A DNA stretch of 64,000 nucleotides from an uncultured archaeon (GTDB lineage: Archaea; Asgardarchaeota; Thorarchaeia; Thorarchaeales; Thorarchaeaceae): the NCBI GenBank assembly GCA_964458565.1, contig CAYWJO010000003.1:64001-128000 (forward strand), written 5' to 3'. How positions within the stretch are numbered: position 1 is the first letter of the stretch; each line of letters starts with the position of its first letter. Positions 26,147-62,178 of this stretch are shown piece after piece. Position numbers and translations under genes: made by a program. Under the pieces are notes generated by a model that saw nothing but the letters and a program-made list of their open reading frames with translations, was not told where the DNA came from and did not search any database.

Positions 26147-26267
26147 TTGAAAGAGTCCTCAATGGTGGTTTTCGCTAAGAATGTCCGATAGTGACTCACA
26201 TAAATATGCGCCGAAAGGAGCACAAGTTTCATTGATAATACTTCCTTTTTTCCAAGCAAAAATTCTT

Positions 26268-31482: not shown

Positions 31483-31524
31483 CCCTCTCTGTAGGTGCTT
31501 AAATACCCTTTACGAGACAAAAAG

Positions 31525-32714: not shown

Positions 32715-35700
32715 CTATGTATCAGTTATATCTGTGTCTTCGATACCCATACTTTTCAGGAGTTCTTGAACAAGGTCTCTTGGGAGTTCACGAGCCTGCT
32801 CCATGATAGTTTCAATCTCATGTGCTGGAACTCCTCGACGAACAAGATCCATTCTGAGTTCTTCAAGCTCAAACACGCTCAATTGGTCAGAGTCAGATGG
32901 GTGTTCTAATTCCTCACGTAGTTTAACTCTTGGATCAACAGCATCTTTGGGTTTGATCATAGGAGGAGGTGTTTCATCAGCGTCGAAGACTCCGGGTTCG
33001 GATGGTTCATCGATGACAAATTCCTCGCCCTCTTCAATTGTGCGAAGTCTGCCCTGAGCTTGTTCCTCGACTTCCTTGAGGATTGTATCTAAGCCTTTTC
33101 CTTCACGTCGGGCAGCTCTTATTGCTTCCTGCTGTATAACCTCCTTAACGAAGGCAGCCTGTTCACTAATCTTCATCTTGGAGATGTCAGCCTTGAATTC
33201 ATCAAGCTCTTCTTGACTTAGATTGGTCAGTATCGATAATTGAATCAGAAGCTCACCAATCTCAGGAACCTCAACTAAAATGGATTCCCCAGGGAGTTGG
33301 TCAGGTTTTCTTGTTATTTCCAGACTTGCCATGGTATCATTGAACAAGTCAGCTACTAGCTGTTGGCGTGTCTTGGCTTCAGAAATTGGGGCTGGAACTT
33401 TACCCTTCCTCATTGTCTTAATCTGACCATTGATCTGCCGAAGACGCTTGGGAATGCTGTAAACACGCGTCCATAGTCCTACTACTACAATTAGGATGAG
33501 AAGTACAGGGAATGCAATTGGTACATATGTAGAAATCATAACATCAATCTGTGTGGGATTGGCAAAAACCTGAACTGATGGAATGGGATCAATATAATAA
33601 TTCTCAATGCTTAGAATCAGAGTCAATGACGAAGTCTGCTGACGCTTAAATATCTCCAAGAGTGGTGCTTGAGCAGTAAAGGTAACTCGATATCGTCCAG
33701 GAATTGAGAGCTCTTCAATTTCTTTAATGGCAACATACTCATTATTGCTGCTGGTAACAGTGAAGTTAGCTCCTGTAACGCCATTTCCATTATGTGTGGG
33801 CCAAGAATCAGTAAGTTGGAGGATAATGTATCCGTCCTGTCCATATTCCAATATTGCATATGAATCCACGATATCTACTGTGGTAGGAATCTTGACTATT
33901 TGAAGGTCAAATCGTATATGAGATAGACTCCGGTTCTCTAGCTTAATTGAAACATCAAGAGTGAATGTTGCATCATTCTGTGGAACCCCACCAGTACTAT
34001 TGAACAACCATGCATCTAGAGTGTTGAAAACAAATCGATAGTAGCCATCACCCACATCTACCAAAGTTATGTAAGTAATTCCAAGATAAGATCCAAAGAT
34101 GTACGTTGAATTCGTCTGAGCATCAGAAATTCCTCCGATAAATCCATCAGAGTCATCAATATCATTGTAGAAGAAGAGTATCTCAGCGGAATCGCCAATT
34201 GGTACTTCTAAGTTTAGTGGATCTCCCACATATGTTGTCGAAACATTGAGATCTGTTGGAGTTTCTTGAATTATGAGATCAATAAGTGCACTACCATCTT
34301 GGAAGTTTTCTTTCTCAAATTTTATTTCAATTGAGTATCGCCCTGGACGGAGTAGAGTTGTGTCAACATATACAAGATATGTCCCACTACCCAAATCAAG
34401 AGCCTCTGTAGCTGGTAAATTAGTGATTGTGATTGTAACCAAGGTGTTGGATTCATTGACTCCTCTATTGAAGGGAATGTCCCAATATGTGAAGTTGAAA
34501 TACCCTTTCCATCCCCAGAATTTCTCCTGGCCACTTGGACGTCTGACAGTTGTCAGAATACGCTTGACTGTAAGAGTAAGCGATGTAGCGGAGTTTCCAT
34601 AGACATCATCATCAGGATTGGCGCGTATACTTATGCTCCATATGCCAGTTCCAATTCTTGTTGTGTTGAATAGAACCGAGTAGGTTCCATTTCCAATATG
34701 AGTGAAATTACCACTATCACCAGTTTCCGACAAGTACCAATATACCCAGGCTTCTGTTATGTTTTCAGATATATCAGGAGCTGTGAGTAAAACAGTGAAG
34801 TTTACAAATTCACTGTAAACCGCACTCACATCTTGACTTGTATCACCAATAAAGGAAAGACGAGTCCTGGTTTCCTCGATGAGCACCTTAAGGAGGCTTG
34901 TTGCGGGATTATAATTTGTGAAAGTTGCTAGTATTCTAACATCATACGTATCTGGATTCTGCACTGTTGAGGACCCAGAAGGAATAGTGACATTGTATCG
35001 ACCAGGAATTCCAGTGTAGAACATATAATAGATATCGTCACCATCAAATCCAACGAATGTTACCCTCACATTTGTGACATATTCATCAAGTATAGGTATA
35101 GCATTGTCAAGGTCAATCAAGTCGATGCTAATATTCAACCCAGCACCGCGACTAATAGTTACTAGTACATCAGGAGGATCAACAAGTTCAATATCAGACG
35201 CAATAGGTTGTATAATTAATGTGATAAAAGCAATTGCAACTTGATAGCGATCCCGTCTAGCTTCGATTCTTATTAGGTATGTTCCTGAATCACCAAAACT
35301 CGCATCAATACTTGTTGAATATATACCTGTACTGAGAGGATCTGTAAGATTTCCAGATGCAAACCCAGGTACAACCCAGACTACTGTTGCGCCAGATGTT
35401 TCATTCCCATAGAGATAGCTCCAATAGGTGACCGAAAAGGATCTGGATTCCTTCCATGGAATTATGATTGTATCGATTGATGTAGTGAGGTAGGTTAAGA
35501 TTTCACGAATTGTACCGGTGAGAACCACTCGCGATAGGTTCCCATAAAATGGTTGTAATGACGGATTCCATCGAATATTCAAATCAAAGAGGTAGTCACC
35601 AGGATTCGTTAATGAGAGCGAGCTGACATTGATTGTATATCTACCCAAATCTGCACCAGATCCTTCAGTTATCCAGAAGTCACTGTTCTCTGCCAGACCA

Positions 35701-38700
35701 ACGCTTTGTGCATCAAATCCAATCAATGCCCCGGAGATAGAAGCTCCAGTATCAGCATCCTGTAGTTTGAAGACAAAAGTTAGATTCTCACCAAGTGCTC
35801 CACTCTCAATCAATTCTATCGAGTACGCCATGGACCTATAGGTGGTTGTAATTCTGATTATTGTTGAGTCATCCGTATAATATGGAGCTACTGCTTCATT
35901 CCAATCCACACTAATTGTAAGATTATATCCACTTACGAGCGATGGACTAAGTTCTGTTGAATTTATAGATAAACTATAACGACCACCTGTTAAGGGTATG
36001 AGAGTGAATGCACTACCTCCAAGAAGTGAACCATCACCCCAGACTTCAATATTTGAGGTTGTTATTGCTGTGATATATTCACCACTTCCCAAATCGGTAT
36101 AGGTAAAGATGAAAGTCACATTGTTAAGATACTTGGTTAATGATGGGGGTTCAACGACCTCAACATTAGTATCACGTGATGTAGTGATAATAGATACTTG
36201 TCTTGAAGCATCATCATGATACGGTGAGCCAAGAGTCCAATCTGCTTGAATTAATGCTGAATGTTGCCCTAAGCCACCAAGTTCCGTTGTGTTGATTGAG
36301 ACCATATAATATCCAAAACCTAGGTCGTATACAATATAATCACTTATGGCAGGTATTGTAATATCGCTTGTATCAATAGTTATCCCAGTTCCACTATCTG
36401 TATCACGGAACAAAATCGTCACGTTAGCATAGTCAAGATATCGAGTTGATTCTGGAGGTTCGATTAAGTCAAGCGAGGAAGCTCTGGTTCTGAACTCAAA
36501 TTCCACAAAAACCGCATCAGAGTCATAGAACGGTGACTGATCGGTATATACCATCCTAAGGGTAAAGCCATATACTACACCCACAGAGAATGGTTGATTA
36601 TAGGTTTCAAAATCAAAGACATAATCATTGAATGGATCTCCACGCCAATTTATTGTATAGAGGTAAGGCGCTGGACTCCATGTCGCACCGGTGATTGAGA
36701 ATTCTACATCTCCACTCACATTCCCAATTGTTGTTAGACTGAATAGGTCTCGGAAATTGAGGGTGAACTCAAGTGTTGAATTGAAAGGCGTTATCTCAAT
36801 CGGAATTGCAGATAACAAAGTCACACGATATCTCACATTGAACGATCGAGTCACAGACCGATTAAGAATGAAGAATGACCCATTCGAGAACTTGATTGTG
36901 AGATCATATATCCCAGGTTGAGAGTAGAATCTCGTATCTAGCGTAACTGTGTAATTTCCATCCATCTCATTGACAACATCGTAGAATCCAATCATGGGTG
37001 TTGAACCATTGAAGAGCTCGATTGTTGTATCCAAATAGATACCAAGAGCAGGAAGGGTGGTTACATCACTCCATGCAACTGTGAATTCCACAGTATCATT
37101 GTATTGAGTGGGATCAGGTGATAGATATTCTACACTTGTTAAACGCGCAGTGATTGTAAACAGAATTACTCGACCTGTACGATTCTTGTAAAAGGGTTCA
37201 CCAATCCAGACAATGTCAAGTGTAAATGATTTAGCTCCAAGTGGAGCACCAAACTGAGCTGTGTTAAATGAGATTGTAAATGAGCGATCAATCGTGCTGA
37301 ATATGATTTGAGGTGTTTCAGAGAGTGACGTCGTTATTGATAATGAGGAGGAATCCGAAATTGGAGTGCTGGTTCCACCAGTGACGTCTTCGAAGTAGAA
37401 TAATAAAGTAGCATTTTCACCATAGGCTGTGGGAGTTACAGGTTCAATAGAAACAAGTGTATCGCGAGCCAGCACTCTTACTGAGATGATATCAGATCTA
37501 TCTGTATAGAATGGTGCGACTCCTTCCTTCCAATTTATTGAAACATTCATGTAGATTAGCCCAACGCGACCAAATAGTGAGCTGTTGAATCCTATCGAAT
37601 AATTACCAGGTTGCCCCAAAACCTCCAGAATGTCAACTTCGGACATATCAACTACCTCACCTTGGAAAGTCACGGTAATGTATACATTCCCTCCACCACC
37701 AGCAGTAACATTATCGATACCAATATTGGATAGATCACTGTAGAAGAAAGTATAATTCATCATCTCACCAAAGGGAGTGGGTTCTGAAGATATCATAAGC
37801 GTGAGCTTGGAATCTACTCCGATGATATTGACAGAAGTCTGAAGCTGTCTGTTTTCGAATTTTTGAACAGGGCCCGTCCAATTGAAATAAACAGTAAAGG
37901 ATTGCAATCCTTGTGGAAATTGGGAGGCATCTATTTGAATCGTATAATACCCGTTGTTGTTATTGATTAATGTTGATGGAACCCAATGCGTCGTGTTCCA
38001 AATATATTGTTGAATATTGGAGTCATCTGTTATTCCGACCTTATTGTCAAAGTCATAATACCTAACTGAAATATTGACAATCCCATTGTATGGAGTGGGA
38101 GCAGGAGCGCTTTGAGAAGAAAAGATTGTGATGTGGGTTCGTATTGTCACCTCCACTTCACAGTATCCTGGTTGATATTCTGCGCCTTTGGTGAAGTTAA
38201 ACCAAATGAGGTAGGTACCCAAAGGATCAGAATCACTCGTTGTGATATTAACAAGGTAGTAAGGACTAATCCAAGTGATTTGAACTGGTAAGTTGAAAGG
38301 AGCAGGTGTTGTCCAGTTGGTATTAGTAACTGCTCCGATAATTGGTATTCCATTATCCAAATCATTGAACTCTATTTCGAAAAGGATAGTATTTCCAACA
38401 GGTATGTCAACTGATATCAACTCTGGTTCAAGGTCAGTATGGATTCTAGTCACAATTATTGCGATAGTCACAGTTCGAGCATCGTAGCCGTCAGCATCAG
38501 CTGTCAAATCTATTTGATGTATTCCAATTGTAAAGTCTACGACACCAATCTCAACTATGTAATCACCATCACTTATGTGACTATAATCAATCCACTGGTC
38601 AATAGGAGTAGGTGATATGGTGGCTGTTGTAATCCCAACGCTTCTATCAAGGTCCTGATAATGTAGTGTAATCGTCACGTTTGTTCCCGAGGGGGTGGAA

Positions 38701-41700
38701 ACTGTGTAGAGGTTTGATGTTAGGTCACTCCTTGCTGGTCGATAATCAAATGTCACCACAAGAAACGTGGGAGCGTAAAGAGAACTAGAAGGAGTGATTT
38801 CGATAGTAATAGTGTATTTACCTTCAGGGAAATGAAATGAATCAATCGTTACATTATAACGTCCATTATTCCATCCAACAATGGTGACATTTTCGATGGG
38901 GTATCCTTGAATAGTTATATCACCAGCAAATCCATCAATATAGTCCCCATAATATTGTCCTTGTTCACTCACATTGTATTGTAAAACAATCTTGAAGTCG
39001 TCACCATTGGGGAAGATAAGATCACTAGGAGCGTGATAGAGGAGTGTAGTCATACTCCGTATTGTTACTACAAAACCATGTGGCAAGGGTGCTTGGTAGA
39101 AGGTTGAGTTAACAGTAATAGTCAATGTTACTGAGGTCGTTCCTACAGCCCATGTATTAGTATTAAGAAGGACATTGAAATCAGATGCACCATCAGGTTG
39201 AGTTCCATAAGATGATGTAAATGAGAATCCTGTGACATTCTCTACTGACACAAGCAATCCCGTGTCCAAGTCGGTTACGACAACAGTGACTAGTGTGTCA
39301 TTGCCATATGGTTGTGTTAGAATACCTACAACACTCGCTGAAGTATAGTGCGCCCGGATCTGGATATTGAAGTTATAATCCACAGGTGCGATAAAATTAG
39401 AATTTGCCATGACAACTGAAACTGTCACAGCTGTAGTAGATATCGGCCAAGCTGAAGTGTCAAGTGTAAGGGAATAGCCACTTGGAGAGTTTTCAATCTG
39501 TGTACCCTGAATTGAATCAAATGTTATTGAAAAGACATTGCTAGCATCCGCAGGTAATCCAGTATCAAGGTCTATCAATACAACTGTCAGCGGAGTATCA
39601 TCACCGATGGGAACAAGAAAATCTCCTGAAACTGACACTGCAGTATAGTGAGCTCGGAGTGTAAATGTCACATTGACGCTTGCCATATTGTATAATGCAC
39701 CAGGTTTAGTTGCATTGAATATGTACCAATGATTACCTTTTGACAGGTAAGTAGTTGGAATCGATATATTGTACCAACCATTGCCTTCTGCAACTACTGA
39801 AACAGATGTGCCGTTGGCAAATATTACATCCGCTCCCGATATGGGTGACCCAGTATAGGTATCGCGGTAAATGAGTGTAGCAGTGAAGTCATTTCCTATT
39901 GGAGTGGTAGATACAGATGTGTATGTCAATTCAGTAGGGTGATACAGGTCGAGATCAAAAAATGTTGAACTCGATTCGTAATAGGGATGACTAGCTTGAA
40001 TATCGATTCGCCATCGTGTCTCTGAAGAGAGGTCAGAAGTGTTCAATGCAAGTGTGTAGTGGCCGTTTCCTGAATCCTCAAAGTATCGTGTCGTAGATGA
40101 ACCACTAACAGTCCAATTCATTGAGATTGTTGCACCTTCAACTCTCACTGAATCAACGGTATCTGTCATATTCACAGCTACGTAGAGGAGGTCCCCAACA
40201 ACTCTTGCTGAGAGACCATCTCCGGTAGCATCCCCGGGTGAATCAAGTGTAAGGTCTGTTGCATGTCTAACAATGAACTGACGTTCATAAAGACCTGTAC
40301 GATATCCCACAGAACTTCCAGAGTCATTATAGTGAAGACTTGCAGTCCACAATCCAGCAGGAGCACTGGCATCAAGTGATTTCGAGAAGATGGGTTCATA
40401 GGTATCTCGGTTTAACTCACTTCCTACAGAATAGAATGTATTGGGAGATGCAAGGTTGTAGTATTCGGTAAGAATCCAGTTAGATGTACGAATTCCAGTT
40501 GATACTCTTACTTCATCAATATCCCCATCGAAGAAACCAAGATTCCCAGGAATTTGTCCATCTGCAGCTCCTCCACCAATACCCCACTCAGCAACATAAT
40601 TCAGATCAGCAAGAGAAGGTGCTCCTCCATTACCACCCACATCGTTTACACCATTAATGTAAATCTGATTATTAGTAGGATTATTGGCATCCATCGTGCA
40701 TGTAAAGGAATACCATGCACCAGCACTCCAACTGGTAGTTGATGTCCAGACATAGCTATATCCACCTCCACTGGCAAGACTCTCAACCTTGAGAACAAGC
40801 ATTCCACGTGCTGAACCACCTCCGACGGTGCCACTAACATAGTCAGCGCCTGCAAGGGCGATATGCATGTTGTAGTTACCATTTAGATACTTCTCCATAA
40901 CCAATAATGTGTTGGATGTGGAATCAAATGCATTGTCCAATTTGAACCAGCCTGAGATTGTCACATCCGCTGGAGGTGTGAGGTCCCGATTAGAAGATAT
41001 ACTCACCATATCGTTAGCGCCATCAAATGATTGACCAAAACCAAATTTTGCTAGAATTTCATCATTCCCATCTTGATTGCCATAATAGCCGTTCCCAGTT
41101 GCATCCAGATGGGTACCACTTGTTTGTTCATTAGTGACTACTTCATCGAGGTGCCAAACTGCAGCATAGTTGTTAGTCCATACAGCTTGAGGGTTCTCAT
41201 ATGGACCAAGAAGATCACTACCATAATACATTGATATCACTGTATCTACTGTGTTTGATAGATTTGCCTTCACCCAAGAAATTAGATGAGCGGTCATACC
41301 GTTATAGGCGAAAAGCTCAATGTCATGGTCAAGAATCACTCCATCTTGAACGAATACCAAATCTGAGGCATCACTCTTGACATCATATCTAAGATCAGCA
41401 TCGATAATATCAACAAGAACAGGATAGTTGGTTAGGTCAGCAAATACCTGACCATTGTCAATTGTGATGTTTTTTCTGTATTTGAAAGCAGGAAGAAGAT
41501 GGCTGGATGGACTCGAAGTCGTGTTTGATGCCGTATACCATATTGAGCCAGAAGGATCTGTGAGTATTAATTGGGATGTCCCTCCATTCATGGAGGTTGT
41601 GAGGCCTTGGAATAACATGCTATCAGGAATGTCAAATACATCAGTAGAAGATAGCGAACCGAGTGAATCTCCTAATTCTAAATTGAAAATTTGGTTAGAT

Positions 41701-42197
41701 GAAGTGAAGGTTAGTTTCCAGAGCCCAAATGTATCGACTGCGCTACTTTTGACTATAATGACGCCACCAAAATTAGTCCAATCAGAAGGATTTGATTTGG
41801 CAACACCAAGGGGATTGGACACACTCACCGGCAACCATTCGGAGAGGAAATAGTCTACGGAGAAGTTAATATCAACAATTTCAGCAGGTGGTGAGACCGA
41901 TACATACGTTGTCCAAGTCACTGTTGTCGCATTGTTTACTGTGAATGATGAACCTATTGTAATATCCTCAGAGTAGGTCTGCCCAGAAGCAATGTATGTG
42001 GAACCATTAGCAAATTGACCATTGAGTGTGACATTCAGAGGAGAGCCAGTGCCTGAGTATAAGCCGGTCTCTGCCAAGTCAAAGAGATTATGATTTGGTG
42101 CAGTACTCAATGTTGTGGATATGTTAGGTGTCTGGACAGCTGGCAAAATAAGTAGCGTGACAAATACAGCTAGTCCTAGGAATATGCTTCTCCTCAT
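32715..42197 (-). CDS. Giant type I membrane surface protein (about 3,160 aa): signal peptide, DUF2341-like plus LamG head, many Ig-like repeats, TM, conserved cytoplasmic tail
   Basis: MRRSIFLG signal (the ORF stays open to 42293); YRKNITID..LTNYPVLV..D..WVKA..MYYG; VWHLDE..FDG..DEVRVS; TM PIAFPVLLILIVVVGLW. Confidence 0.85.
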   Translation of the reverse strand: MRRSIFLGLAVFVTLLILPAVQTPNISTTLSTAPNHNLFDLAETGLYSGTGSPLNVTLNGQFANGSTYIASGQTYSEDITIGSSFTVNNATTVTWTTYVSVSPPAEIVDINFSVDYFLSEWLPVSVSNPLGVAKSNPSDWTNFGGVIIVKSSAVDTFGLWKLTFTSSNQIFNLELGDSLGSLSSTDVFDIPDSMLFQGLTTSMNGGTSQLILTDPSGSIWYTASNTTSSPSSHLLPAFKYRKNITIDNGQVFADLTNYPVLVDIIDADLRYDVKSDASDLVFVQDGVILDHDIELFAYNGMTAHLISWVKANLSNTVDTVISMYYGSDLLGPYENPQAVWTNNYAAVWHLDEVVTNEQTSGTHLDATGNGYYGNQDGNDEILAKFGFGQSFDGANDMVSISSNRDLTPPADVTISGWFKLDNAFDSTSNTLLVMEKYLNGNYNMHIALAGADYVSGTVGGGSARGMLVLKVESLASGGGYSYVWTSTTSWSAGAWYSFTCTMDANNPTNNQIYINGVNDVGGNGGAPSLADLNYVAEWGIGGGAADGQIPGNLGFFDGDIDEVRVSTGIRTSNWILTEYYNLASPNTFYSVGSELNRDTYEPIFSKSLDASAPAGLWTASLHYNDSGSSVGYRTGLYERQFIVRHATDLTLDSPGDATGDGLSARVVGDLLYVAVNMTDTVDSVRVEGATISMNWTVSGSSTTRYFEDSGNGHYTLALNTSDLSSETRWRIDIQASHPYYESSSTFFDLDLYHPTELTYTSVSTTPIGNDFTATLIYRDTYTGSPISGADVIFANGTSVSVVAEGNGWYNISIPTTYLSKGNHWYIFNATKPGALYNMASVNVTFTLRAHYTAVSVSGDFLVPIGDDTPLTVVLIDLDTGLPADASNVFSITFDSIQGTQIENSPSGYSLTLDTSAWPISTTAVTVSVVMANSNFIAPVDYNFNIQIRAHYTSASVVGILTQPYGNDTLVTVVVTDLDTGLLVSVENVTGFSFTSSYGTQPDGASDFNVLLNTNTWAVGTTSVTLTITVNSTFYQAPLPHGFVVTIRSMTTLLYHAPSDLIFPNGDDFKIVLQYNVSEQGQYYGDYIDGFAGDITIQGYPIENVTIVGWNNGRYNVTIDSFHFPEGKYTITIEITPSSSLYAPTFLVVTFDYRPARSDLTSNLYTVSTPSGTNVTITLHYQDLDRSVGITTATISPTPIDQWIDYSHISDGDYIVEIGVVDFTIGIHQIDLTADADGYDARTVTIAIIVTRIHTDLEPELISVDIPVGNTILFEIEFNDLDNGIPIIGAVTNTNWTTPAPFNLPVQITWISPYYLVNITTSDSDPLGTYLIWFNFTKGAEYQPGYCEVEVTIRTHITIFSSQSAPAPTPYNGIVNISVRYYDFDNKVGITDDSNIQQYIWNTTHWVPSTLINNNNGYYTIQIDASQFPQGLQSFTVYFNWTGPVQKFENRQLQTSVNIIGVDSKLTLMISSEPTPFGEMMNYTFFYSDLSNIGIDNVTAGGGGNVYITVTFQGEVVDMSEVDILEVLGQPGNYSIGFNSSLFGRVGLIYMNVSINWKEGVAPFYTDRSDIISVRVLARDTLVSIEPVTPTAYGENATLLFYFEDVTGGTSTPISDSSSLSITTSLSETPQIIFSTIDRSFTISFNTAQFGAPLGAKSFTLDIVWIGEPFYKNRTGRVILFTITARLTSVEYLSPDPTQYNDTVEFTVAWSDVTTLPALGIYLDTTIELFNGSTPMIGFYDVVNEMDGNYTVTLDTRFYSQPGIYDLTIKFSNGSFFILNRSVTRSFNVRYRVTLLSAIPIEITPFNSTLEFTLNFRDLFSLTTIGNVSGDVEFSITGATWSPAPYLYTINWRGDPFNDYVFDFETYNQPFSVGVVYGFTLRMVYTDQSPFYDSDAVFVEFEFRTRASSLDLIEPPESTRYLDYANVTILFRDTDSGTGITIDTSDITIPAISDYIVYDLGFGYYMVSINTTELGGLGQHSALIQADWTLGSPYHDDASRQVSIITTSRDTNVEVVEPPSLTKYLNNVTFIFTYTDLGSGEYITAITTSNIEVWGDGSLLGGSAFTLIPLTGGRYSLSINSTELSPSLVSGYNLTISVDWNEAVAPYYTDDSTIIRITTTYRSMAYSIELIESGALGENLTFVFKLQDADTGASISGALIGFDAQSVGLAENSDFWITEGSGADLGRYTINVSSLSLTNPGDYLFDLNIRWNPSLQPFYGNLSRVVLTGTIREILTYLTTSIDTIIIPWKESRSFSVTYWSYLYGNETSGATVVWVVPGFASGNLTDPLSTGIYSTSIDASFGDSGTYLIRIEARRDRYQVAIAFITLIIQPIASDIELVDPPDVLVTISRGAGLNISIDLIDLDNAIPILDEYVTNVRVTFVGFDGDDIYYMFYTGIPGRYNVTIPSGSSTVQNPDTYDVRILATFTNYNPATSLLKVLIEETRTRLSFIGDTSQDVSAVYSEFVNFTVLLTAPDISENITEAWVYWYLSETGDSGNFTHIGNGTYSVLFNTTRIGTGIWSISIRANPDDDVYGNSATSLTLTVKRILTTVRRPSGQEKFWGWKGYFNFTYWDIPFNRGVNESNTLVTITITNLPATEALDLGSGTYLVYVDTTLLRPGRYSIEIKFEKENFQDGSALIDLIIQETPTDLNVSTTYVGDPLNLEVPIGDSAEILFFYNDIDDSDGFIGGISDAQTNSTYIFGSYLGITYITLVDVGDGYYRFVFNTLDAWLFNSTGGVPQNDATFTLDVSIKLENRSLSHIRFDLQIVKIPTTVDIVDSYAILEYGQDGYIILQLTDSWPTHNGNGVTGANFTVTSSNNEYVAIKEIEELSIPGRYRVTFTAQAPLLEIFKRQQTSSLTLILSIENYYIDPIPSVQVFANPTQIDVMISTYVPIAFPVLLILIVVVGLWTRVYSIPKRLRQINGQIKTMRKGKVPAPISEAKTRQQLVADLFNDTMASLEITRKPDQLPGESILVEVPEIGELLIQLSILTNLSQEELDEFKADISKMKISEQAAFVKEVIQQEAIRAARREGKGLDTILKEVEEQAQGRLRTIEEGEEFVIDEPSEPGVFDADETPPPMIKPKDAVDPRVKLREELEHPSDSDQLSVFELEELRMDLVRRGVPAHEIETIMEQARELPRDLVQELLKSMGIEDTDITDT

Positions 42198-42396
42198 TTT
42201 TGATGACCTTCTGGAAGATGTAGCGGGATTCATAGTTGGGGGTAATATATGTGTGGGCAGAAATGACTCGTACATCTTGGAGGATAGTCCCATCTATATA
42301 AGAACAAATCTCTTGTTTCCTCTATCCGTAGTGTGGAATAGTTGCCGAAAAATAGAATGCTAGCTCATAGCATAAAATTAAAAATAAAGAGATAAT

Positions 42397-42413
42397 GGCC
42401 GGAGAATCCGGCC
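42397..42413 (-). terminator. Hairpin downstream of gcvH
   Basis: GGCCGGA-GAA-TCCGGCC followed by a T-rich tract on the minus strand. Confidence 0.6.
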
Positions 42414-42423
42414 TTTCAAAGGG

Positions 42424-42867
42424 TTAATCACCCTTCATTGCTTTCTTTTCAGCGACCTCTTTCGTAGCCCATTCAGCTAGACCATTAGGTCCCTGTAAGG
42501 TTGCTAGATCAGCCTCAAGGTTTTCAGCCTCAATGACTGCAATCCAACCTGCACCATATGGATCATTATTAAGAAGTGCAGGATCATCTTTCAGTTTTTC
42601 ATTTACTTCTACGATAGTACCTGAAATTGGAGCTTTTACTGCACCGGTCCATTTTCCGGACTCAAGTGTACCAATGCTACGACCAGCTTTTACATCTTTG
42701 CCAGCAGGTCTGAGTCTAATGAACTTGATCTTGCCTGCTGCGTAGGTGCCTAACGTGGTAAGTCCTATTCGCACTTTGTTACCTTCTACCTTAATCCAGT
42801 TTGAATCTGTGGAGCCGGCGAAGTAGTACATATCGTCTGGGAAATTGAAGCCATCCACTTCTACCAT
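42424..42867 (-). CDS. gcvH: Glycine cleavage system H (lipoyl carrier) protein
   Basis: RIGLT, GTLESGKWTGAVKAPISG (lipoyl Lys), VNEKL..DP.LLN.DPYG.GWI. Confidence 0.9.
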   Translation of the reverse strand: MVEVDGFNFPDDMYYFAGSTDSNWIKVEGNKVRIGLTTLGTYAAGKIKFIRLRPAGKDVKAGRSIGTLESGKWTGAVKAPISGTIVEVNEKLKDDPALLNNDPYGAGWIAVIEAENLEADLATLQGPNGLAEWATKEVAEKKAMKGD

Positions 42868-42937
42868 GGTTTTATCACCCATTATCTTTGAAAATTCTGA
42901 GTTCAATCCTCACTTAAGTACCTTATTCTTATGGGAT

Positions 42938-43138
42938 TTACTTACTCTTACCATTTATGGCATCTCTGAGTGTATCAAGTTCATCGGGCTCAATTTCAAC
43001 ATAGACAGGACCCGAATAACCACACTCCTCAACCGTACAATAATAGGTAGCAGGCACAAGCCAACCACTCACAGAACTCGGTGCTTCCCTGATAGTGGGT
43101 TCACCACATTTTGGGCACACACGTATCTTTGCAGTCAT
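42938..43138 (-). CDS. Small archaeal Zn-ribbon protein
   Basis: CPKCG...GWL.P..Y.C...CGYSG. Confidence 0.7.
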   Translation of the reverse strand: MTAKIRVCPKCGEPTIREAPSSVSGWLVPATYYCTVEECGYSGPVYVEIEPDELDTLRDAINGKSK

Positions 43139-43261
43139 AATGAATTCTCCCGGCTAAGCTACTACTAACATCTCAATGGTTTTTAAATTAGCGGTAATTC
43201 ATAGACATTCGTCTAAGAAAAACACGGGGGTGGTTATATTCATTGATACGGCAGTGTATTA

Positions 43262-44029
43262 GTGATGAGGTTGCCGCACTCTGACATGAAACTAGGCTTT
43301 CAGACAGCCGACAAGGCCATCCGGAGAACAGTGAGCACCGGAATAAAGGCATTAGACACTCTTCTAGATGGCGGTCTCGAACTTGGAATCATGCATCTCT
43401 TCTATGGCGACCGTAGTCTCTACAGGGACATCCTGAAGATGGCAGTACACATTCAATTACCAGAAGAACGTCGAGGTTTATCTAGTCCAACCATCGTCAT
43501 CGATAGCGCCAATATGTTGAAGATTGAGGCACTCACTGAGTACGCCTTTGAATTTGACCTTGAACCGGAGTATGTGATGGATAGGGTCTATATCTCACGG
43601 GCATTCAATAGCTCACAGACTTACGACCTCGTGATGAATCAGCTCGAGTCGTTCCTAGAAAGAATCCCTGCAAAGTTACTGATAGTCTCAGGACTGCCGG
43701 ACCTCTACCTCAGTGAAGGAATCGATGGAGAGGGGTTGCAGCAGATAACGCATATGGCAACCAAGGTGAAGAATCTGGCTCTTCAGAGAAACATTGCTAC
43801 CTTGGTCACCACACAACCTTCACCCAAGAATCCACGGTTTCCTGCCGGAGGAAAAGCACTGTCCAGCAGTGCACAGATTCATGTTCATGTTGAGGAGTCA
43901 AAGTCCTATACACACTACACTCTTGCAAAGCATCCGCAGTTTCCGGTACGCAGAACCTCACGGGCAAAGACCATAGATTTTGGTAGCACTCTTCCTCTAT
44001 CCTACTTCCTCAATCAAGAGGAAGAATAG
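43262..44029 (+). CDS. RadA/Rad51 paralogue lacking canonical Walker motifs
   Basis: STGIKALDTLLDGGLELG, ISRAFNSSQ, PAGGKAL; the P-loop reads YGDRSL with no GKT. Confidence 0.8.
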   Translation: MMRLPHSDMKLGFQTADKAIRRTVSTGIKALDTLLDGGLELGIMHLFYGDRSLYRDILKMAVHIQLPEERRGLSSPTIVIDSANMLKIEALTEYAFEFDLEPEYVMDRVYISRAFNSSQTYDLVMNQLESFLERIPAKLLIVSGLPDLYLSEGIDGEGLQQITHMATKVKNLALQRNIATLVTTQPSPKNPRFPAGGKALSSSAQIHVHVEESKSYTHYTLAKHPQFPVRRTSRAKTIDFGSTLPLSYFLNQEEE

Positions 44030-44047
44030 AGGGGGTGCGTGTACCCT

Positions 44048-47000
44048 CTACTTCTTGCCTGTGAGACTCTTCACAAATTCATCAACCAGCTCACGTGAGA
44101 GATGCTCGGCTTGCTCCATGATAGTATCGATCTCGTGAGGTGGCACACCCTTCTCCTCGAGTTCTTTTCTCAACTCTGCTAGTTCAAAGGGACTGAGTTT
44201 CTCATCAGGGCTAGCAGGTCGTTCTGGTAAGTAGTCCTCAGGTCGTTTATCAGCCATCCGTTTTGCTTCGGGTTCAGCTTTCATGATAGTGGATTCCATC
44301 TCTTCGTCCACATCGATCGGCTCATCGAAGTCGATTGGTGGTTTCTTAGGTCGGTCCTCATCAACAAGGAAGATTGAGTCTTCTTCAGGACCTCGATAGT
44401 CGACTCTTGGGACCTCACCCTCTTCAACTCCTGCAACCGTTCTTGAGGCCTGATCTGCAACCTCCTCGAGTACCTTCTCAACACTCTTACCATCACGTCG
44501 TGCTGCTCTGATTGCTTCCTGATAGATGACTTCTTTCACGAAAGCAGCCTGCTCACTCAACCTCATCTTGGAGATGTCAGCCTTGAACTCGTCAAGCTCA
44601 TCAGGGCTCAGATGAGTAAGAATAGAGAGCTGTACGAGTAACTCACCCATCTCTGGCACTGCAACTATAACAGATTCTGATGGCAGCTGGTCTGGTCTTC
44701 GAGTGATTTTGACCTGTTCAAAGGTATCATTGAATAGCTCAGCAATCAGTTGATCTCGCCTTTTAGCCTCATCAATAGGCTTTGGAACCTTACCTTTGCC
44801 TAGAGCTTTAATCTGTCCATTGATCTGACGAAGTCTCTTTGGTACGCTTAGCACTCTCACGTACAAAGCACCAAGCAATAGTAGAATGAATACTATTGGA
44901 GTTCCATATGATGTGACAGTGGTCAGTGTGTCTTGAAATTCTGTGGGAGTTATTCCAACCAATAATTCGATATCACCATCAACATGGTTAACGCGATAGA
45001 TTCTAATATCAATAACAGAAGACACATCAGGAAGACCAATCGGAAAAAGAACAGGAGCTTCAATTGTTAGTCTGTAAATTCCATTTCCAATTTCTTCCCA
45101 AGATGTGACATTTACAACTTCGGGATTTGATGATATGACCTTAATATAAGCCCCAGTTATTCCATCGCCAACATGACCGGGCCATGCATCATAGAATCTT
45201 AGCTCTACCGTAGTCGGTACAGCATAATTAATATTGATTCTATCCTCACTGTCCACATTGTTTGATGTAAAGGCAGTATCTGTGGGGACATCTATAATCG
45301 TGATGAATATGGTGATAATAGATTGAGTTCTGTTCGCAGTTCTGAGAGGGATTGTAAATCGATATCTAGCATCATCAACTCTGAAAAGACTCGTATCAAA
45401 GGTGAAACTGTAGTTACCATTTCCGAGCTCAATAATGTCAAGAGGACTTGTATCATATACAGGATGATAGTATCTAGCATAATCAACCTCATCCAAGGTC
45501 CAATTGGCTCCTTCAACCCCTCCAATAAATGGTGTGTCCCATGGAGCAACTGTGGCATTATAAAATAATATCACTGTGATAGAATCACCAAATGGCACCA
45601 CAAGCTGAGTGGCATCCATACTGGAGTTACTGTACTTTGGCGGATAAACAACAATCTCCGTTGGAATGGATCTTACCCTCACCCGAACTGTTCTAGGAAT
45701 ATAATCATAATTATCCTTTCTAAAGTCTACAGTTAGGGAATACTCTTCAGTACTTGGTTCGACAAGAGTGCTGTCAATGAAAATACCATATGTTCCATTC
45801 CCAAATGGCGTCGCATTGAATTTCCTATTCGCCCACTGGTATGTAACAGTTGCATTGATAACAAGTGATTCATGATCCTCATCAACAAAATTGAAACCAT
45901 AAGTTCCATTTCCACCCCAAAATATTGCGGGTATTTCTGGTGCTTCAACCAAGGTATGAATTGCTCTGATACTAAGGGTTGTTGTTGTGCTATTCGATGT
46001 GTATTCCTTGTTGAGTGGAACAGCAGATATTCTCAATGTATAGGTCTGTGCTGGATATTGACTGGTATCGATAGAGACATTGTAGTATCCCCAATAATTT
46101 GCTCCAAAAACTGACCGATTTAAGAGATATAGCGGATATGGTGTTCCTTCACCGATCAGGCTCATTGTTACAGTTGCATCATTTCTCCAATGTTCGTCAG
46201 GATTCTCTGTTTCATTGATATAAGGTGCATATACCCACACACCCACCTCAACAATCTGAGACCAATAGAAGTTCTCATCAGCAATGCTTTGTGAATTAAT
46301 ATCAAGCTGAACAACAGTCATAGTCTGTTTTACAACGAGAGTCATGATGATTGGTGAGATGAGATAGTTGTTCTTTGATGCTTCAATGACCAGAGTATAC
46401 GTTCTAGAAGCCTCTGCATCATCAGTATCGAGGATAAAGGAATAGTTGCCTCCGGTTTCCTGCGTGAAGTATTCAGATTGCTCGCTACCAAAATCCCAAG
46501 TAATTAGTACATTTGCATCAATTACTCCTTCACCAGCATAGGGAGAGTCACTCACTTCTAGATTCACTCGGATAGTCACTTCAGAACCCCTAGTTGTATC
46601 AAGAGTGAAATCATCACCTGATGGATTAATACTCACAGGAATTTGGAGTATTGTCAATGTGACTGATTTTGTCTGAGTTATGTGATTCTCATAACTAGCA
46701 ATTATCTGGATGGCATAGGTTCCGTGAGGTACTAGTTGTGTATCTAAGGAGAATGTGAAATTACCAGGAACTCCTGTAGCTATGAGGGGGATGTCTGAAC
46801 CTAGAATCCAGCTATAGGTCAAATCACCAGCTAGGACTGGTCTACTGTGTACAGTATCATAATAGACAGCTGTAATCGTCACTTCGTCTCTCCAGTAAAC
46901 AGAAATACTAGAATCTGAAAGAGTAAGGTCGGTCTCTACTTGTTTAATTTCTATGTCGAAGTATACAGCAGAGATTGAATAGCTGGACAGAGATAACACA

Positions 47001-50000
47001 ATTTTGAGTATCTTTACACCATAGGGAATCGAAGTTGTCTGGAATGTAATGTTATAGAAACCACCAGAAATAGGTGTAACGTCAGATACACTCAACCATG
47101 TAACTGTACTACTTGCACCATCCACGAGAACATTCGCATCTGTGTCATTCAACCAAACCAGAATATAACCTTCATCTCCAGCAAACCTGGATTTTGTTGA
47201 TGATACTTCTTGAATACTCGCTTGACGCAAACGGACTTGGAAGGATACCTGTGATTCTGCCTCGTCATATGGATATAGGTTGAATGTAATTACAAGACTT
47301 TTGAGACCTGCAGCTCCCGCATCTAAAGTGTTCACAGTAATAAGATACTGACCATCAAACAGAAATTCAATATCCCATATGGCAGGTTCAGAGCCACTAC
47401 TGTAGACAACAGTAATTGATGATGAAACGTCGTTAATATAATGACGAGGATCAGGCAAAGTGTGATCTATATCGTTTAGAGTAATCGTTATAGACACGTT
47501 ATCCTTTAGAGGAACTGTAGAAGGTACCGGTGAGTCAGGAGTTATGGATGTGCGAATTCCTCTTACAGATCCAACCATTGGTACTCCGGAGATGTCTCTA
47601 TAGAAGGGTCTCGATGAATCAATCCAATCAAGGTTAAGACGGAAAGTGAAAATACCAAAACTTCCCAAGAATGTTGTACTTACATCGATGTAATATTCAC
47701 CAGGCAATGCTCCAGAATATACCCAGTAATTAGCGCCCCATGTTAGAGTAACTTGGTCACAAGCTAAAGTGATTTGGGTTAATGGAATGACAATACCGTT
47801 CCCGGTTGTATCGTCAGTATAATTGAAAGTGAGCCTCATGAGATCTTGCATTGGAGTGTCAGGAGAAAGACCAATCGTGATTCTAGCCACTCGTTTAGTT
47901 ATTGTAACACTGACAGGGGTGCTGTCACTCGCATAATATGGTGCACCTCCAGACCATGTGACCGTGATCGTTAAAATACGAGTCAGAGTCGCATTGGCGA
48001 TCTTTGTTGTATTAATTACTATTCTGAAATAATTGATTTCAGGTGTAATTATATAATTAGACGGACTGAGTAATGTACCTCCATTGTATATGATTACATC
48101 ACCAGAATCAATGATAATATCATTCCCAGTTCCTACATCAGTAAATGCTAATGTGAAGTTGAACAAATCAAGATATTTCGTCTGCTGAGGAGGATCCTTC
48201 ACATCTACATTAGTAGGTCTTGTCGTTACGGTGATTCGAACACTGATGACAGCTTCGTTGTAGTAGTATGGTGCACCGATTTTGTTAGCGAAGACGAAGA
48301 TCGTATATTGTGCTGGAGCACCTAAAGCAGAAGTATTCAGATTGATCTGATATTCACCTGCCGTTAGAGCATCCCAAGTATAATACATCAATGCGATAGG
48401 TGAACCATTACTGTATTCAAGGCTGATTGATGCACCATCAATTCCAATACTTGCATCAGTGTCAAGGTACAGTACAACGAATGGATTGAGAGGTGATTCT
48501 GTAATATCATTGTAAGCGGTAGGTTGAGGAGATTCTTCAAGATCTATTGAAGCAATCCTTCCTCTGATTGAGAATGCAATGTAAAGTTCATCAGCAGCAT
48601 AGAATGGCTCAAGATTAACATAAGACATACGAACGTGCAAGGTGTAATTTATTCCACTTCCAAATCCACGTCCTGCAGTTTCAACCTGCAGTTCATATTT
48701 CTGTGAATCCGAATCCCAAGTAATTGAATAAACATAATCAGGTCCGGTGGTGTTGAGGATTTCGAAAGATGTGTAAAACGTTGTGCCATTCACTATGGTC
48801 TGAAGAGTGAGAATATCTTGATAGTCTAATATCACATTCATTATGGTATCAATACCAATCCGCCCAACAGGCTCATTCGAAAGTATTGTTGATCGATATC
48901 TAACACTAAACTGGCGGATAGACCATGCATCTTCGACATATTCTGAACCCGTATATGTGAAACTAGCATTAAGGGTAAATAATCCAGGAGTAGCAAAATA
49001 GGATGAGTCCAAGTCTATTTCGAATACACCTGAACCCAAGTAATTCACGGAGTAAAATCCTGTTAATGGATAATTACCAGAGATGTTAGAGTAGAATAAT
49101 GCAAAATCACAATCAGAATCTAGAATACCAGTAGTAGTAAGCCCTGCAATGTCTTGATACTCTACTGTGAACACTACACTATCACCAAATGGTGTTGGGT
49201 CAGGAGATTGAAACTCGACTATCGATGCTCGTAGTGTGACGGTGATTCTGATTGTAATTAATGTTCTATTTGAGTAGTAAGGCGCACCAGCCCAAGTCAC
49301 ACTCAAAGTGAATGTCTTTTGACCTATCCCACCAAATTGTGCAGTATCGAATTCAATTGTAAATTCTGTCACACCAAAGATTTCAGGTGTTTCGAACAAG
49401 CTGGTTGAGATATCCATGTGAGTGGGATCGAAGGATATAGCACTCTCTCCACCACCTGACACATCAAGGAATGAGAAGGTGAATGTAGCGTTTTCGCCAT
49501 ATGCAGTATTGATTGGTGGTGATACTGAAACAAGTGTGTCGCGGGGTATGATGCTAACCTTTGTAGTAGACGAATCATCACGATAATAAGGAACAGACCC
49601 ATCCCAAATGACTTCAACGGTGATTTGTAAGTTGTTTATCAATACTGTACTTAGGGTTACTGAATTGATTGTAACCTCAAATGATGTACCTGTTGTACCA
49701 TTCAAAGTATAATCTACAACCTGAGTAAGCAGAACACCTTGGTCGTAGATTTTGATGTCAGAATCACTAATTTGCACCTTCTGACCGGTTACTGCATCAG
49801 TGAAAGCAAAAATGAATGTCACATCCTCGAGATAATTGGTAGCTGATGGAGCAACAAGTATCTCAACGTTTGATGTTCGTTTCACAACTTGTGCTGTTAC
49901 TGTTAGGTTTGCCATTGCATGATATGGAATACCTGAGTAACTAGCACTTACTTTCAGACTTGTTGCACCCAATCCATCCAATGCAGTGGATAATACTGAT

Positions 50001-53000
50001 ACGTCGTAGTAACCGGGAGAGCCAGGGGTGACCAAATAGTCAACATCTTGAACCAAGGTCGTTAAGCCTTTATAGATCGAGACTGTACCGCCAGAGATAG
50101 TGGCATCAAGATCCACATCGTAGTAGCGAATCGTGAAATTAACATATTCAAGGTAAGGTGTATCGCTTGGAGAGACTGAAAGGTCAAGAGTCGAGTATCG
50201 CGCTCTAGTTTCAATATCCGCAACAGTAGTTCGACTACTATAGAATGGTGCAGCATTTTGGTATGATAATTGAATTATCAGACTGGTTACATTACCAGGA
50301 ACCATTGCTGGATGATTATAAGTCTGAACTGTTAGTAAGTAATAATTGTAGGGTGCTCCAAGCCAAGACATGCTGGAATACCAGGTACCCGGACTCAATA
50401 TCTGCACTGAAACATCGTGGTCAATGTTGTCTAGAGTCAGGAAGTCCTGATAATAGAGTATAATGTCAACTGAGGTGTTGTATGCATTTCTTGGAACCGG
50501 GTCAGCAGTCAGAAAAGTTGTTCGATACCTAATCTCCAAAAATCTTGATGCTGTAACATCAGGCATGAAGAATGTATAATTTGTTAGATATACTCGAAGA
50601 CCAAATGTTCCAGGAGTTGTATAATATGATGCATTGAAATCGACAGAATATTCACCATCTCCAAGAGGTGTGACTGAATAGTAGGAGAATGGTATATAGA
50701 TGGACCCAAGAACATCATAGAGAGTTAGATTCACATTATTATCGATAGGACCACCAGTGCCCGTAACATCTGTCCAAATCACTGAAAACACAACATTATC
50801 ACCAAATGGAGTGGGAGAAGGAGTCTGATATTCCACTACAGTTTGCCGCAATGTCAACGTGACTGAGATTTGCCGCCCATATCGATCAGCGTAGAATGGT
50901 GCTCCATCCCAAGTCACACTGAGTGTGAAGGATTTCTTCTCAATAGGTGCAGTGAATTGATTAGTATCAAATGATACTGTGAATGTCTTGTCAGTATCAT
51001 TATAGAACAATGAGAAATCTGCGAGACTGAGTATAATCTCCATTGTTGTTGAATTATAAGCAATCGGAACACTTCCTGCGCCAGTGACATCATCGTATGT
51101 GAATATGAAAGTAGCATTCTCACCATAGGGAGTAGGAGTAGGTGGTGTAACAGAGAGTATTGTGTCTCTTGGATTCACACGTACTGCAATCACATCAGTT
51201 CTATTAGTGTAATATGGATCTACTCCAGGATTCCAACCAATGTAGACATTCATCAAGATGACGCCTGTGGTTCCAAATATGGTGTTGTTAAATGAGATAG
51301 AGTAATTTCCAGGTTGACCAATAACCTCTGTTATAGTCACCTTTGACAAATCTACCGTATAACTTTGGAATTCTATAGATATGAAAACGTTACCACCTGG
51401 TGGATTCCCAGATGTTGTATTATCAATCCCAATACCTGTGAAGAAGTCACTGTAAAAGAACGTGTAAGTCATATTCTCAAGATAGGGTGTCGGTTCAGCA
51501 GTGATTAGTAGAGCATATGCAGATTCTGTACCACCAATATTGACCTGGGTGTTGATAGTCTTATTTTGATAGGTATAAACAGGACCAGTCCAGTTGAAGA
51601 ATATCTTCAGACCAAAGAGACCTGGACCAAATTGATTTGCAGGTACTTTGATTACGTAGTAACCAGGTAGAGTTCCATTGAATAGGTATGACGTAACTGG
51701 TAGTCCATTGATATCTTCTACTCGATGGAGCACATACTTTGATTTGATGCCAACTTGATCATCAAGGTCACCGTAGAACACATCAATCGTGATATTAGCA
51801 TTGAAGTAAGTAGGCTCGGGTGCATTAACTGTTCTAAAGTCCGTGTTATGTGTTCTGAGAGAGATTGTAAGATTGAATAGACCAAATTGATAGTTTGAGC
51901 CCTTTGAGAAATTAAAGAGAACAACGACGTTCTGTTGTAGGGGATCATCCACCTCAGTTGGGAGTGTGATTCGATATCTACCTTCACCCAAGAGGTATTG
52001 CATAATAACAGGACGCCCAAACAGAGTATCCCATCCAGTGTTCAATTCGAAAAGTCCACTATCATCAATAGGCAAATTATTGTCAATATCCCAATATTCT
52101 ACATAGAATACAGGATCATTCCCAACAGGGATATCTAATGCACCAACAGTTGGAATTGCATAGGTATACACAATTCGGACTAGAATCCGGAAGTTACTCA
52201 ATGTTCTTGCAGCATGAATAGTTGATTCTGCAGTGAGGTCAAAGTAGTGAATACCCCTATCAAGACCACCAACAAGAAGTGTTACATTATAGAGTCCGGG
52301 GGTACCTGGAAATTCGTAATAAGATATGGAAATACCTGTAGCAGTTATTGTAGCACCAGATATTCCAGCATTTCGGTCGATATCAGTATAGTTCAGAGTA
52401 ATCCAGACATCGCTTCCATATGGAGTAATGACTTGCGGATAATTGTCTGAAGATAGGAAGCTCAGAGCCTCACGATATTCAAAAATTATTATCAGACTTG
52501 TTGAACCGTAGCGAGAGTCTGAAGGAATAACACGAATAGTAATAGAATAAGATCCTTTCTTTTGGAAGAAAGTAGCAGAGATACTCAAATTATATCTTCC
52601 ATCAGATAAGAATGAAATTGATGCAGGAAATGTGTATCCTGTCCCGTTTGTTACTGTGAATTCGCCCTGAGTAATTCCGTTGATAGGTGCACCATTATAT
52701 TGGTTCCCGTCCTCACTTACATTGAAACGGATGATTATTTGGAAATCATCATCAATTGGGTAAATCAGATCTGTTGGCTCGTTGTAAAGATAGGTTTTCA
52801 GACTGTGAATGACAATATCAAAAACATAGTTCCCTGGATGGCCATATATTCCACTCATCGTCATTGATAGTGTTACAGTTTCAGTCCCTACATTCCAGAT
52901 GTTTGTTGGAAGTACTAAGTCTAGTTGAGTATTTGAGGGAGAGTAAGGTGCATACCCAGAACTAAACGTGAATCCAGCAACAGAGCTATTATCGAGTTGA

Positions 53001-61941: not shown

Positions 61942-62178
61942 TCATATTGATTTGTTCCATTGTTTATAGGCTAAGTCAATGTCCTTGTCTGTGATGGTCT
62001 TTCTTCGTGTGTGCTCTGTAATTTCGAATGCTCTGCGAGCTATGTATATTCCTACATCTTCCAGTATTTTTGCAAGTCGTTCAGCACCCTTATCGCTGAC
62101 TCGTCCAGCACCAGCTTTTCTAATCAAGCGGTCAATAGGTGCAACGGGTATGATTCTGTCATCTCGTGATCTTGGCAA
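61942..62178 (-). CDS. Archaeal histone with a short basic N-terminal extension
   Basis: IPVAPIDRLIRKAGAGRVS...HTRRKTITDKDIDLA; TTG start after AAGGAG. Confidence 0.95.
   Translation of the reverse strand: MPRSRDDRIIPVAPIDRLIRKAGAGRVSDKGAERLAKILEDVGIYIARRAFEITEHTRRKTITDKDIDLAYKQWNKSI

Follow-up and report, generated by a model that had tools for sequence, protein, structure and literature searches.

A conserved, probably cytoplasmic tail of giant Asgard surface proteins as a predicted docking site for an NPRL2/3-like adaptor

Integrins (beta tail and talin), cadherins (with catenins) and the apicomplexan protein TRAP combine a large ectodomain, one transmembrane (TM) helix and a conserved tail on which an adaptor docks. 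Archaeal S-layer and surface glycoproteins consist of a signal peptide, a sequon-rich ectodomain and a C-terminal TM anchor, and many Asgard surface proteins bear Loki-CTERM (NF033507), a conserved C-terminal TM-associated signature. Two giant proteins, A and B, are encoded in a 64,000-nucleotide stretch of DNA from an uncultured archaeon of the Thorarchaeia (the window, G000:C3:64001-128000, where G000 is the genome studied and C numbers denote its contigs). They share these layouts and differ behind the membrane helix. Unlike S-layer glycoproteins, A and B carry a folded, conserved tail of about 250 residues; unlike Loki-CTERM, a motif of 27 positions, the tail motif is followed by about 40-400 cytoplasmic residues. 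The likeness to integrins, cadherins and TRAP is a functional analogy, with no sequence or fold relation found and with a putative adaptor of longin and winged-helix build. Identity with Loki-CTERM was rejected: NF033507 gives no match in G000 or in ten tails, and matches other loci elsewhere.

For the adaptor, the closest described proteins are NPRL2 and NPRL3 of GATOR1 (yeast Npr2/Npr3 in SEACIT; FLCN-FNIP and C9orf72-SMCR8 are related). The adaptor family considered here has the same domain order, a longin domain followed by tandem winged helices, and is likewise genetically tied to small GTPases. It differs in being only about 10-14% identical in sequence, in apparently lacking a family-wide GP motif or arginine finger, in neighbouring Arf/Roc-type fusions rather than Rag GTPases, and in its predicted recruitment by a single-pass surface protein instead of Ragulator or KICSTOR. 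The GP motif and catalytic arginine finger of NPRL2/NPRL3 have been described (PMC12290439). An Asgard NPRL2-like family with NPRL2-like domain organisation is reported from most Thorarchaeia and a few Loki genomes (Liu et al., 10.1101/2020.10.19.343400), and the accessible part of that report mentions no surface-protein partner or tail motif. The present adaptor occurs in nearly all Loki genomes and is perhaps a distinct family.

Cultured Asgard archaea have no S-layer, possess unidentified surface proteins and crawl by regulated adhesion; the accessible parts of the two papers concerned name no adhesion protein and describe no link from the surface to a GTPase (PMC13716822, PMC12993045). A literature search with subscription journals outside its reach returned no description of the tail or of a giant-adaptor pairing. 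The proposed receptor-adaptor-GTPase logic would be built from Asgard parts, and the tail is conserved and undescribed in the literature searched. With moderate confidence, the tail is read as a docking platform for an NPRL2/3-like adaptor tied to an Arf-like GTPase. This reading offers a testable link, with a residue-level predicted interface, between the Asgard cell surface and eukaryote-like signalling proteins.

Topology, anatomy and age of the tails

The following features of the two giants were located, all coordinates being those of the window.

32715..42293, minus strand: giant surface protein A, 3192 residues, with signal peptide, ectodomain, single TM helix and 250-residue tail
44048..60847, minus strand: giant surface protein B, 5599 residues, a paralogue of A with longer head and stalk and a 264-residue tail
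40473..41024, minus strand: LamG/concanavalin-like domain in the head of A (residues 424-607; Pfam PF13385, E 6.9e-11)
57317..57499, minus strand: DUF2341 match in the head of B (residues 1117-1177; Pfam PF10102, E 1e-7)
33468..33524, minus strand: TM helix of A (residues 2924-2942; by hydropathy, and a helix in the AlphaFold2 model)
44843..44899, minus strand: TM helix of B (hydropathy peak at residues 5317-5335)
33309..33476, minus strand: juxtamembrane docking motif of A (residues 2940-2995; predicted to bind an NPRL2-like adaptor)
44699..44866, minus strand: corresponding motif of B (66-70% identity to that of A)
33096..33272, minus strand: helical unit 1 of A together with its long helix (residues 3008-3066; the best-conserved part in Thorarchaeia, 83%)
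44486..44662, minus strand: helical unit 1 of B (81% identity to A)
32889..33023, minus strand: acidic, proline-rich linker of A (unconserved, 18% identity; model confidence about 50)
32748..32888, minus strand: unit 2 of A, the terminal three helices (a weak relative of unit 1)
44060..44200, minus strand: terminal three-helix unit 2 of B (60% identity to A)

By hydropathy, both proteins show a hydrophobic signal at the N-terminus and only one TM segment, towards the C-terminus. No lysine or arginine occurs in the 15 residues on the ectodomain side of this segment, against 5-6 in the 20 residues after it, and N-x-S/T sequons fall from 1.7-2.3 per 100 residues in the ectodomain to 0.4-0.8 in the tail. 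Because of these charge and sequon biases, and in line with the hydropathy, the tails are placed inside the cell. A and B are thus read as probable single-pass surface glycoproteins with ectodomains of about 2,900-5,300 residues. A tail of this size is unusual in G000: among 32 large signal-plus-TM proteins, 17 have tails of at most 10 residues, as an earlier note on this sequence had assumed to be typical of archaeal surface proteins, and 7 have tails of at least 125. That note called the pair lectin-tipped adhesins; Pfam scans of the whole of A and B give only the LamG match in A and the DUF2341 match in B above cut-off, the matches on which this label rests. The scans show no integrin or cadherin domains; its comparison with those receptors is an analogy.

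The AlphaFold2 model of the tail, built from an alignment of 136 tails, has a predicted local distance difference test score (pLDDT, the model confidence given above) of 85 and a predicted template modelling score (pTM) of 0.50. In it the TM helix leads into a juxtamembrane segment of two helices; next come a helical unit with a long helix and, beyond a disordered linker, the three helices of the last unit. The juxtamembrane motif comprises an invariant proline, P-xxx-R on a basic amphipathic helix, a GKxP loop, a distal arginine and a second helix. Between units 1 and 2 hhalign finds a weak relationship (probability 69%, 20 columns), and unit 2 is present in four copies in 6 of 190 relatives. 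Neither Pfam nor NCBIfam has a family that matches the tails of A and B over cut-off, and no PDB entry matches them in sequence. The modelled fold has no match in the PDB, the ESM Atlas or viral libraries, the best VIA hit being at Z 5.9; because the domains were not folded alone, this null does not prove a new fold. A Fas death-domain hit at Z 5.5 lies within noise and was discarded.

The tails had been described as nearly identical in two blocks. The blocks are present, and the wording overstates their likeness: TM plus tail is 52% identical between A and B (E 9e-94), with 70-81% in block 1 and 60% in block 2. Of the first 118 tail residues 90 agree (76%), and by part the identity amounts to 66-70% in the juxtamembrane segment, 81% in unit 1, 18% in the linker and 60% in unit 2. 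The ectodomains, said to be diverged, are in fact homologous over their whole length (blocks of 45%, 38% and 28%), and it is the membrane-proximal stalk alone that falls to 22-26%. The four-fold sites common to both tails number only 10 of 26, near saturation, which rules out recent gene conversion and indicates that the tail is conserved by selection at the protein level. Since the ectodomains are paralogous lengthwise, the pair is, on sequence grounds, an old duplication with a tail kept by selection. Across 30 relatives of A's length the tail blocks are more conserved than the ectodomain (64-83% vs 31-49%), and within Thorarchaeia unit 1 exceeds the juxtamembrane motif (83% vs 67%). Three further paralogues lie in G000: contig C29 has two, and the third, on C17, is divergent. 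Two more large single-pass proteins of this genome, G000:C24:2769-9140(+) and C58:5055-9770(-), have motif-free tails of 359 and 247 residues that resemble longin domains by eye.

Distribution of the motif and linkage to the adaptor

Named homologues of the tail are Thorarchaeota. A profile of the whole tail finds 82 of 85 genomes from the same family, in almost every case with a strong match, whereas its matches in other Asgard families are weak; the weak matches are considered genuine because a TM helix followed by the same motif ends large open reading frames (ORFs) there. The motif profile itself matches 300 of 400 Asgard genomes, among them L. ossiferum, P. syntrophicum MK-D1, Odinarchaeum, Atabeyarchaeia, Helarchaeota and Hermodarchaeota, and its best hit on the reversed ORFs of G000 has an E value of 0.1. 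Across Asgard classes the motif is found at the C-terminus of proteins of 500-7000 residues, and in sequence searches the named matches were all Asgard save one with a Bathyarchaeota label. Loki-type tails consist of the motif and a short basic extension, without helical units; in Hermod, Odin and Jord types, related-looking helical units are added to it. The tail is, as read from these alignments, two-layered: a widespread juxtamembrane motif and three-helix units strongest in Thorarchaeia. The tail is conserved well beyond the pair and gives no match to a known unrelated domain.

The motif is nearly absent from families f7-f13, three of which are tied to Heimdallarchaeia names, the rest being placed there from list order. 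The only positives in Heimdall-type families (L137, G039:C317, and L136, G084:C43) lie on contigs of 2.5-2.8 kb with Loki-like genes and are probably mis-binned. This apparent absence bears on a rewiring of the surface-adaptor link near the origin of eukaryotes.

Some relatives depart from the usual architecture. In several Loki-type chains (P0233-P0254, P0274) two ectodomain-TM-motif blocks occur in one chain, apparently through fusion of tandem genes. P0207 (L012:44-1069), P0220 (L013:792-1349) and P0227 (L014:88-663) have no giant ectodomain and end in a unit-1-like domain; all three loci are short metagenome contigs, the genes of L013 are small and closely packed, and a viral search found no relative of P0220.

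Clustering of the genes next to motif genes gives one dominant family, a soluble protein of 360-420 residues, here called the adaptor. Its gene is adjacent or one gene off in 20 of 43 loci outside Thorarchaeia. All five strong adaptor copies of P. syntrophicum MK-D1 stand beside motif genes, four of them outside the training alignment, as do all five of L. ossiferum (including three tandem giant-plus-adaptor units) and both of Odinarchaeum; the Thorarchaeia genome G313 has an independent adaptor-giant-adaptor-giant duplication of its own. The adaptor is present in 308 of 400 Asgard genomes, including nearly all Loki ones, and its family-level pattern matches that of the motif. Arf-family GTPase genes follow or flank it in Thor, Hermod, Jord/Freya, Hel and family f6 loci and at the copy on contig C2 of G000; these GTPases score best as Arf or Roc-type, and the neighbour is frequently a longin-Arf protein. 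No fusion of motif and adaptor was found in 352 proteins and the collected loci, the long frames in G228 and G226 being separate genes. Candidate pairs in cultured strains are NEF87_001534/NEF87_001533 of L. ossiferum and DSAG12_03149/DSAG12_03152 of P. syntrophicum. In Loki and Hel genomes a protein of 630-900 residues that combines a TrmB-like helix-turn-helix with a long helical part regularly belongs to the cassette, as at L059, L062, L063, L069, L082, L083, L098 and L100.

The same neighbourhoods bear on a direct link of the tail to Lokiactin or an actin regulator, in the manner of integrin and cadherin tails. According to the accessible part of PMC13716822, Asgard cells can crawl over surfaces, form actin-filled protrusions and have unexplained surface proteins, and unit 1 is left without an assigned partner. 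Against this, no actin, gelsolin or profilin gene is among the recurring neighbours of motif genes, no known actin-binding fold was matched, and Loki-type tails lack the helical units altogether; a direct actin link is very improbable. The evidence points to an NPRL2/3-like adaptor, not to actin, gelsolin, profilin or ESCRT, and no direct cytoskeletal link was found.

Adaptor fold, predicted complex and proposed mechanism

The adaptor model, made with the paralogue from contig C17 (pLDDT 88.7, pTM 0.82), comprises a longin domain and two winged helices; the C2 adaptor belongs to the same family (E 6e-115). In Foldseek the five best matches are all GATOR1 chains (E 5e-4 to 9e-4), and in VIA chain 8fw5_B of the GATOR1 complex aligns at Z 11.9 over 177 residues (residues 3-325, root-mean-square deviation 11.9). 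Neither NPR2 nor NPR3 is among the Pfam families listed for the adaptor, and no GATOR1 chain is among its PDB sequence matches. As modelled, the adaptor is NPRL2/3-like in build, not in sequence. GTPase-activating protein (GAP) activity is not supported, because neither the GP motif nor the arginine finger appears to be family-wide; in the C2 clade the arginine of the presumed loop is present and the GP motif absent.

The fold leaves room for two other roles. The same binding could serve a cargo adaptor that sorts or holds the giants in membrane patches, protrusions or vesicles under an Arf-like switch, with no inward signal, comparable to the longin subunits of AP, COPI or TRAPP complexes. 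The longin fold also matches chains of VAMP7, COPI, AP-3 and sedlin (Z 8.6-10.2), the neighbouring GTPases are of Arf or Roc type, and Hermod and Jord genomes have one full adaptor copy for 3-6 motif genes, where one adaptor would serve several unlinked giants. The full-length architecture is nevertheless closest to GATOR1 subunits, and giants and adaptors that are duplicated together, one to one, point to dedicated pairs more than to a general sorter, which makes this role improbable. Alternatively, the partner could be a winged-helix transcription regulator sequestered at the membrane by the tail and freed by a cue at the surface, much as Mlc is sequestered by the glucose transporter of E. 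coli. For the C17 paralogue there are matches to Pfam HTH_20 (E 5.7e-8) and to ArsR-type structures, and the TrmB-like gene adjoins the cassette in Loki-type genomes. These helix-turn-helix families match only 2 of 21 adaptor family members, however; the winged helices of NPRL2/3 and ESCRT-II bind protein, and the GTPase neighbourhood fits the longin domain. A transcriptional role has a slim chance.

Docking was modelled with tail A residues 2940-2995 and the C2 adaptor, using custom alignments, for which the benchmark counts hold roughly: the mark is reached by 58 of 80 solved pairs and 2 of 110 mismatched ones. The pair scores 0.84 in ipSAE (interaction prediction score from aligned errors; runs 0.84, 0.85 and 0.83), compared with 0.01 for the best of three controls. 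The runs share at least 97% of contacts, with a partner pLDDT of at least 79. The predicted interface lies on adaptor residues 160, 215-255 and 336-375 and does not involve the longin domain. Confidence is highest for contacts between the distal arginine of the tail and Asp215 and the FPEY motif of the adaptor; among contact residues the arginine is 86%, the aspartate 84% and the proline 98% conserved. Adaptors without the aspartate flank tails without an arginine at that position in about three independent cases; in the C17 cassette, the aspartate is lost from the adaptor and the arginine from the tail alike. Sequence searches gave no relative of the motif with a solved structure, and it is therefore unlikely that the predictor reproduced a like complex. 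The common intracellular docking module suggested in the earlier note is thus supported by the inside tail, its conservation beyond the pair, the gene order and the controlled complex prediction. That the motif binds the NPRL2/3-like adaptor family is likely.

G000 has three adaptor paralogues, on C2, C3 and C17. The C2 copy (G000:C2:134178-135311), unlinked to A and B, shows 81-88% identity across all 23 of the 23 high-quality genomes from the family. It was modelled as the partner because it keeps the family consensus, is single-copy and conserved and precedes an Arf-like gene, the C17 copy being linked to a divergent giant of its own and the C3 copy fast-evolving. The C2 protein is accordingly put forward, by a narrow preference, as the partner of A and B in trans. 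In Thorarchaeia, then, giants without a linked adaptor bear the canonical motif, and by prediction they rely on a core adaptor in trans.

Several observations weigh against docking as proposed. Tail-adaptor binding is itself a model prediction, and the complex test cannot single out C2 because close cousins of a true partner can pass. Several adaptors with the aspartate flank tails without the arginine, the adaptor interface as a whole is barely more conserved than average (p 0.07), and unit 1, the most conserved part in Thorarchaeia, lies outside the modelled complex. The window pair and 14 more such Thorarchaeia loci have no adaptor gene nearby, and the shared absence of motif and adaptor comes down to about one Heimdallarchaeia loss and several small families rather than to hundreds of events. 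The GP motif occurs in 11 of 53 adaptors, and an arginine in the presumed loop, a position inferred and not superposed, likewise in 11 of 53. An Arf (UYP48373) co-purifies with Lokiactin, as stated in the accessible part of PMC13716822; in accession order it is far from the cassettes UYP45248-9 and UYP44569.

Some of these points would also suit a passive anchor, in which the basic helix would rest against the inner face of the membrane, self-association of the helical units would gather the stalks into clusters, and the adaptor link would concern only linked genes in other lineages. A basic amphipathic helix agrees with the positive-inside rule, unit 1 exceeds the motif in conservation among Thorarchaeia, unit 2 reaches four copies, and the window pair stands without a nearby adaptor gene. 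A lipid-binding helix would not, however, require an invariant proline and a distal arginine across Asgard classes, and tail A of the window passed the controlled complex test; mere anchoring is a poor candidate.

For the docking platform, a mechanism in four steps can be proposed. First, as the sequence shows, a single TM helix carries the huge ectodomain, and a folded tail follows it inside the cell. Second, the first 55 or so cytoplasmic residues, forming the two-helix motif, are predicted to bind the C-terminal half of the NPRL2/3-like protein of about 375 residues, which gene order backs; for A and B, the unlinked C2 paralogue would be the likely partner, in trans. Third, the free longin domain of the adaptor may pair with the N-terminal domain of the fused Arf-like GTPase encoded next to it, setting a GTPase switch beneath the surface protein that could report contact or position the protein on the cell body or protrusions. 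Fourth, and very tentatively, the additional three-helix units might bind a second partner or cluster receptors. A relay from the surface protein to the GTPase is conceivable, at slightly less than even chances. An ancestral outside-in system in most Asgard classes, formed by a variable giant receptor, a tail-docked NPRL2/3-like protein and a regulated Arf-like GTPase, with one core adaptor in Thorarchaeia serving several unlinked receptors in trans, is rather doubtful.

If docking occurs, it suggests a role of NPRL2/3-like proteins that predates the lysosome, namely recruitment to the plasma membrane by surface proteins. The ancestral outside-in system, if it exists, would be a forerunner, at the cell surface, of the longin GAP platforms of eukaryotes and a candidate for the missing adhesion control in crawling Asgard cells.

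Neighbouring genes and further observations

The neighbourhood of A and B is housekeeping in nature and conserved in Thorarchaeia, with thiI, a histone-like gene and a DUF2334 gene upstream, RadB-like and GcvH-like genes between the giants and a Cdc6-like gene downstream.

42424..42906, minus strand: glycine-cleavage H-like gene between the giants, read from the sequence, a conserved neighbour in Thorarchaeia
43262..44029, plus strand: RadA/RadB-like gene between the giants (Pfam Rad51, E 1.2e-16), a conserved neighbour

By neighbourhood comparison, neither of these two genes shows a sign of belonging to the tail-adaptor system. The Cdc6/Orc1-like gene (window 31495-32670, plus strand) has an altered Walker A motif, is convergent with A and stays beside the giants in Thorarchaeia. 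The histone-like gene is an ORF of 78 residues (window 61942-62178, minus strand) between the DUF2334 gene and thiI, upstream of B.

Elsewhere in G000, the C17 cassette (L058:1387-11917) contains the adaptor, a giant of 2423 residues with a divergent motif, a fused Arf-like GTPase and genes for small helical proteins. Separated from the C3 adaptor by a few genes, L057:6224-6688(-) (G000:C3:149220-149687) encodes a protein of 155 residues with a partial motif and no clear TM helix; a gene resembling it is also found near the adaptor in G313. It is possibly a soluble decoy or a broken gene. Finally, at window 24164-28277 on the minus strand lie tandem paralogous membrane proteins of 660 and 669 residues with a peptidase-like N-terminal region. 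They share a near-identical run of Asp-rich repeats of calcium-binding type, which suggests recent conversion or a collapsed assembly.

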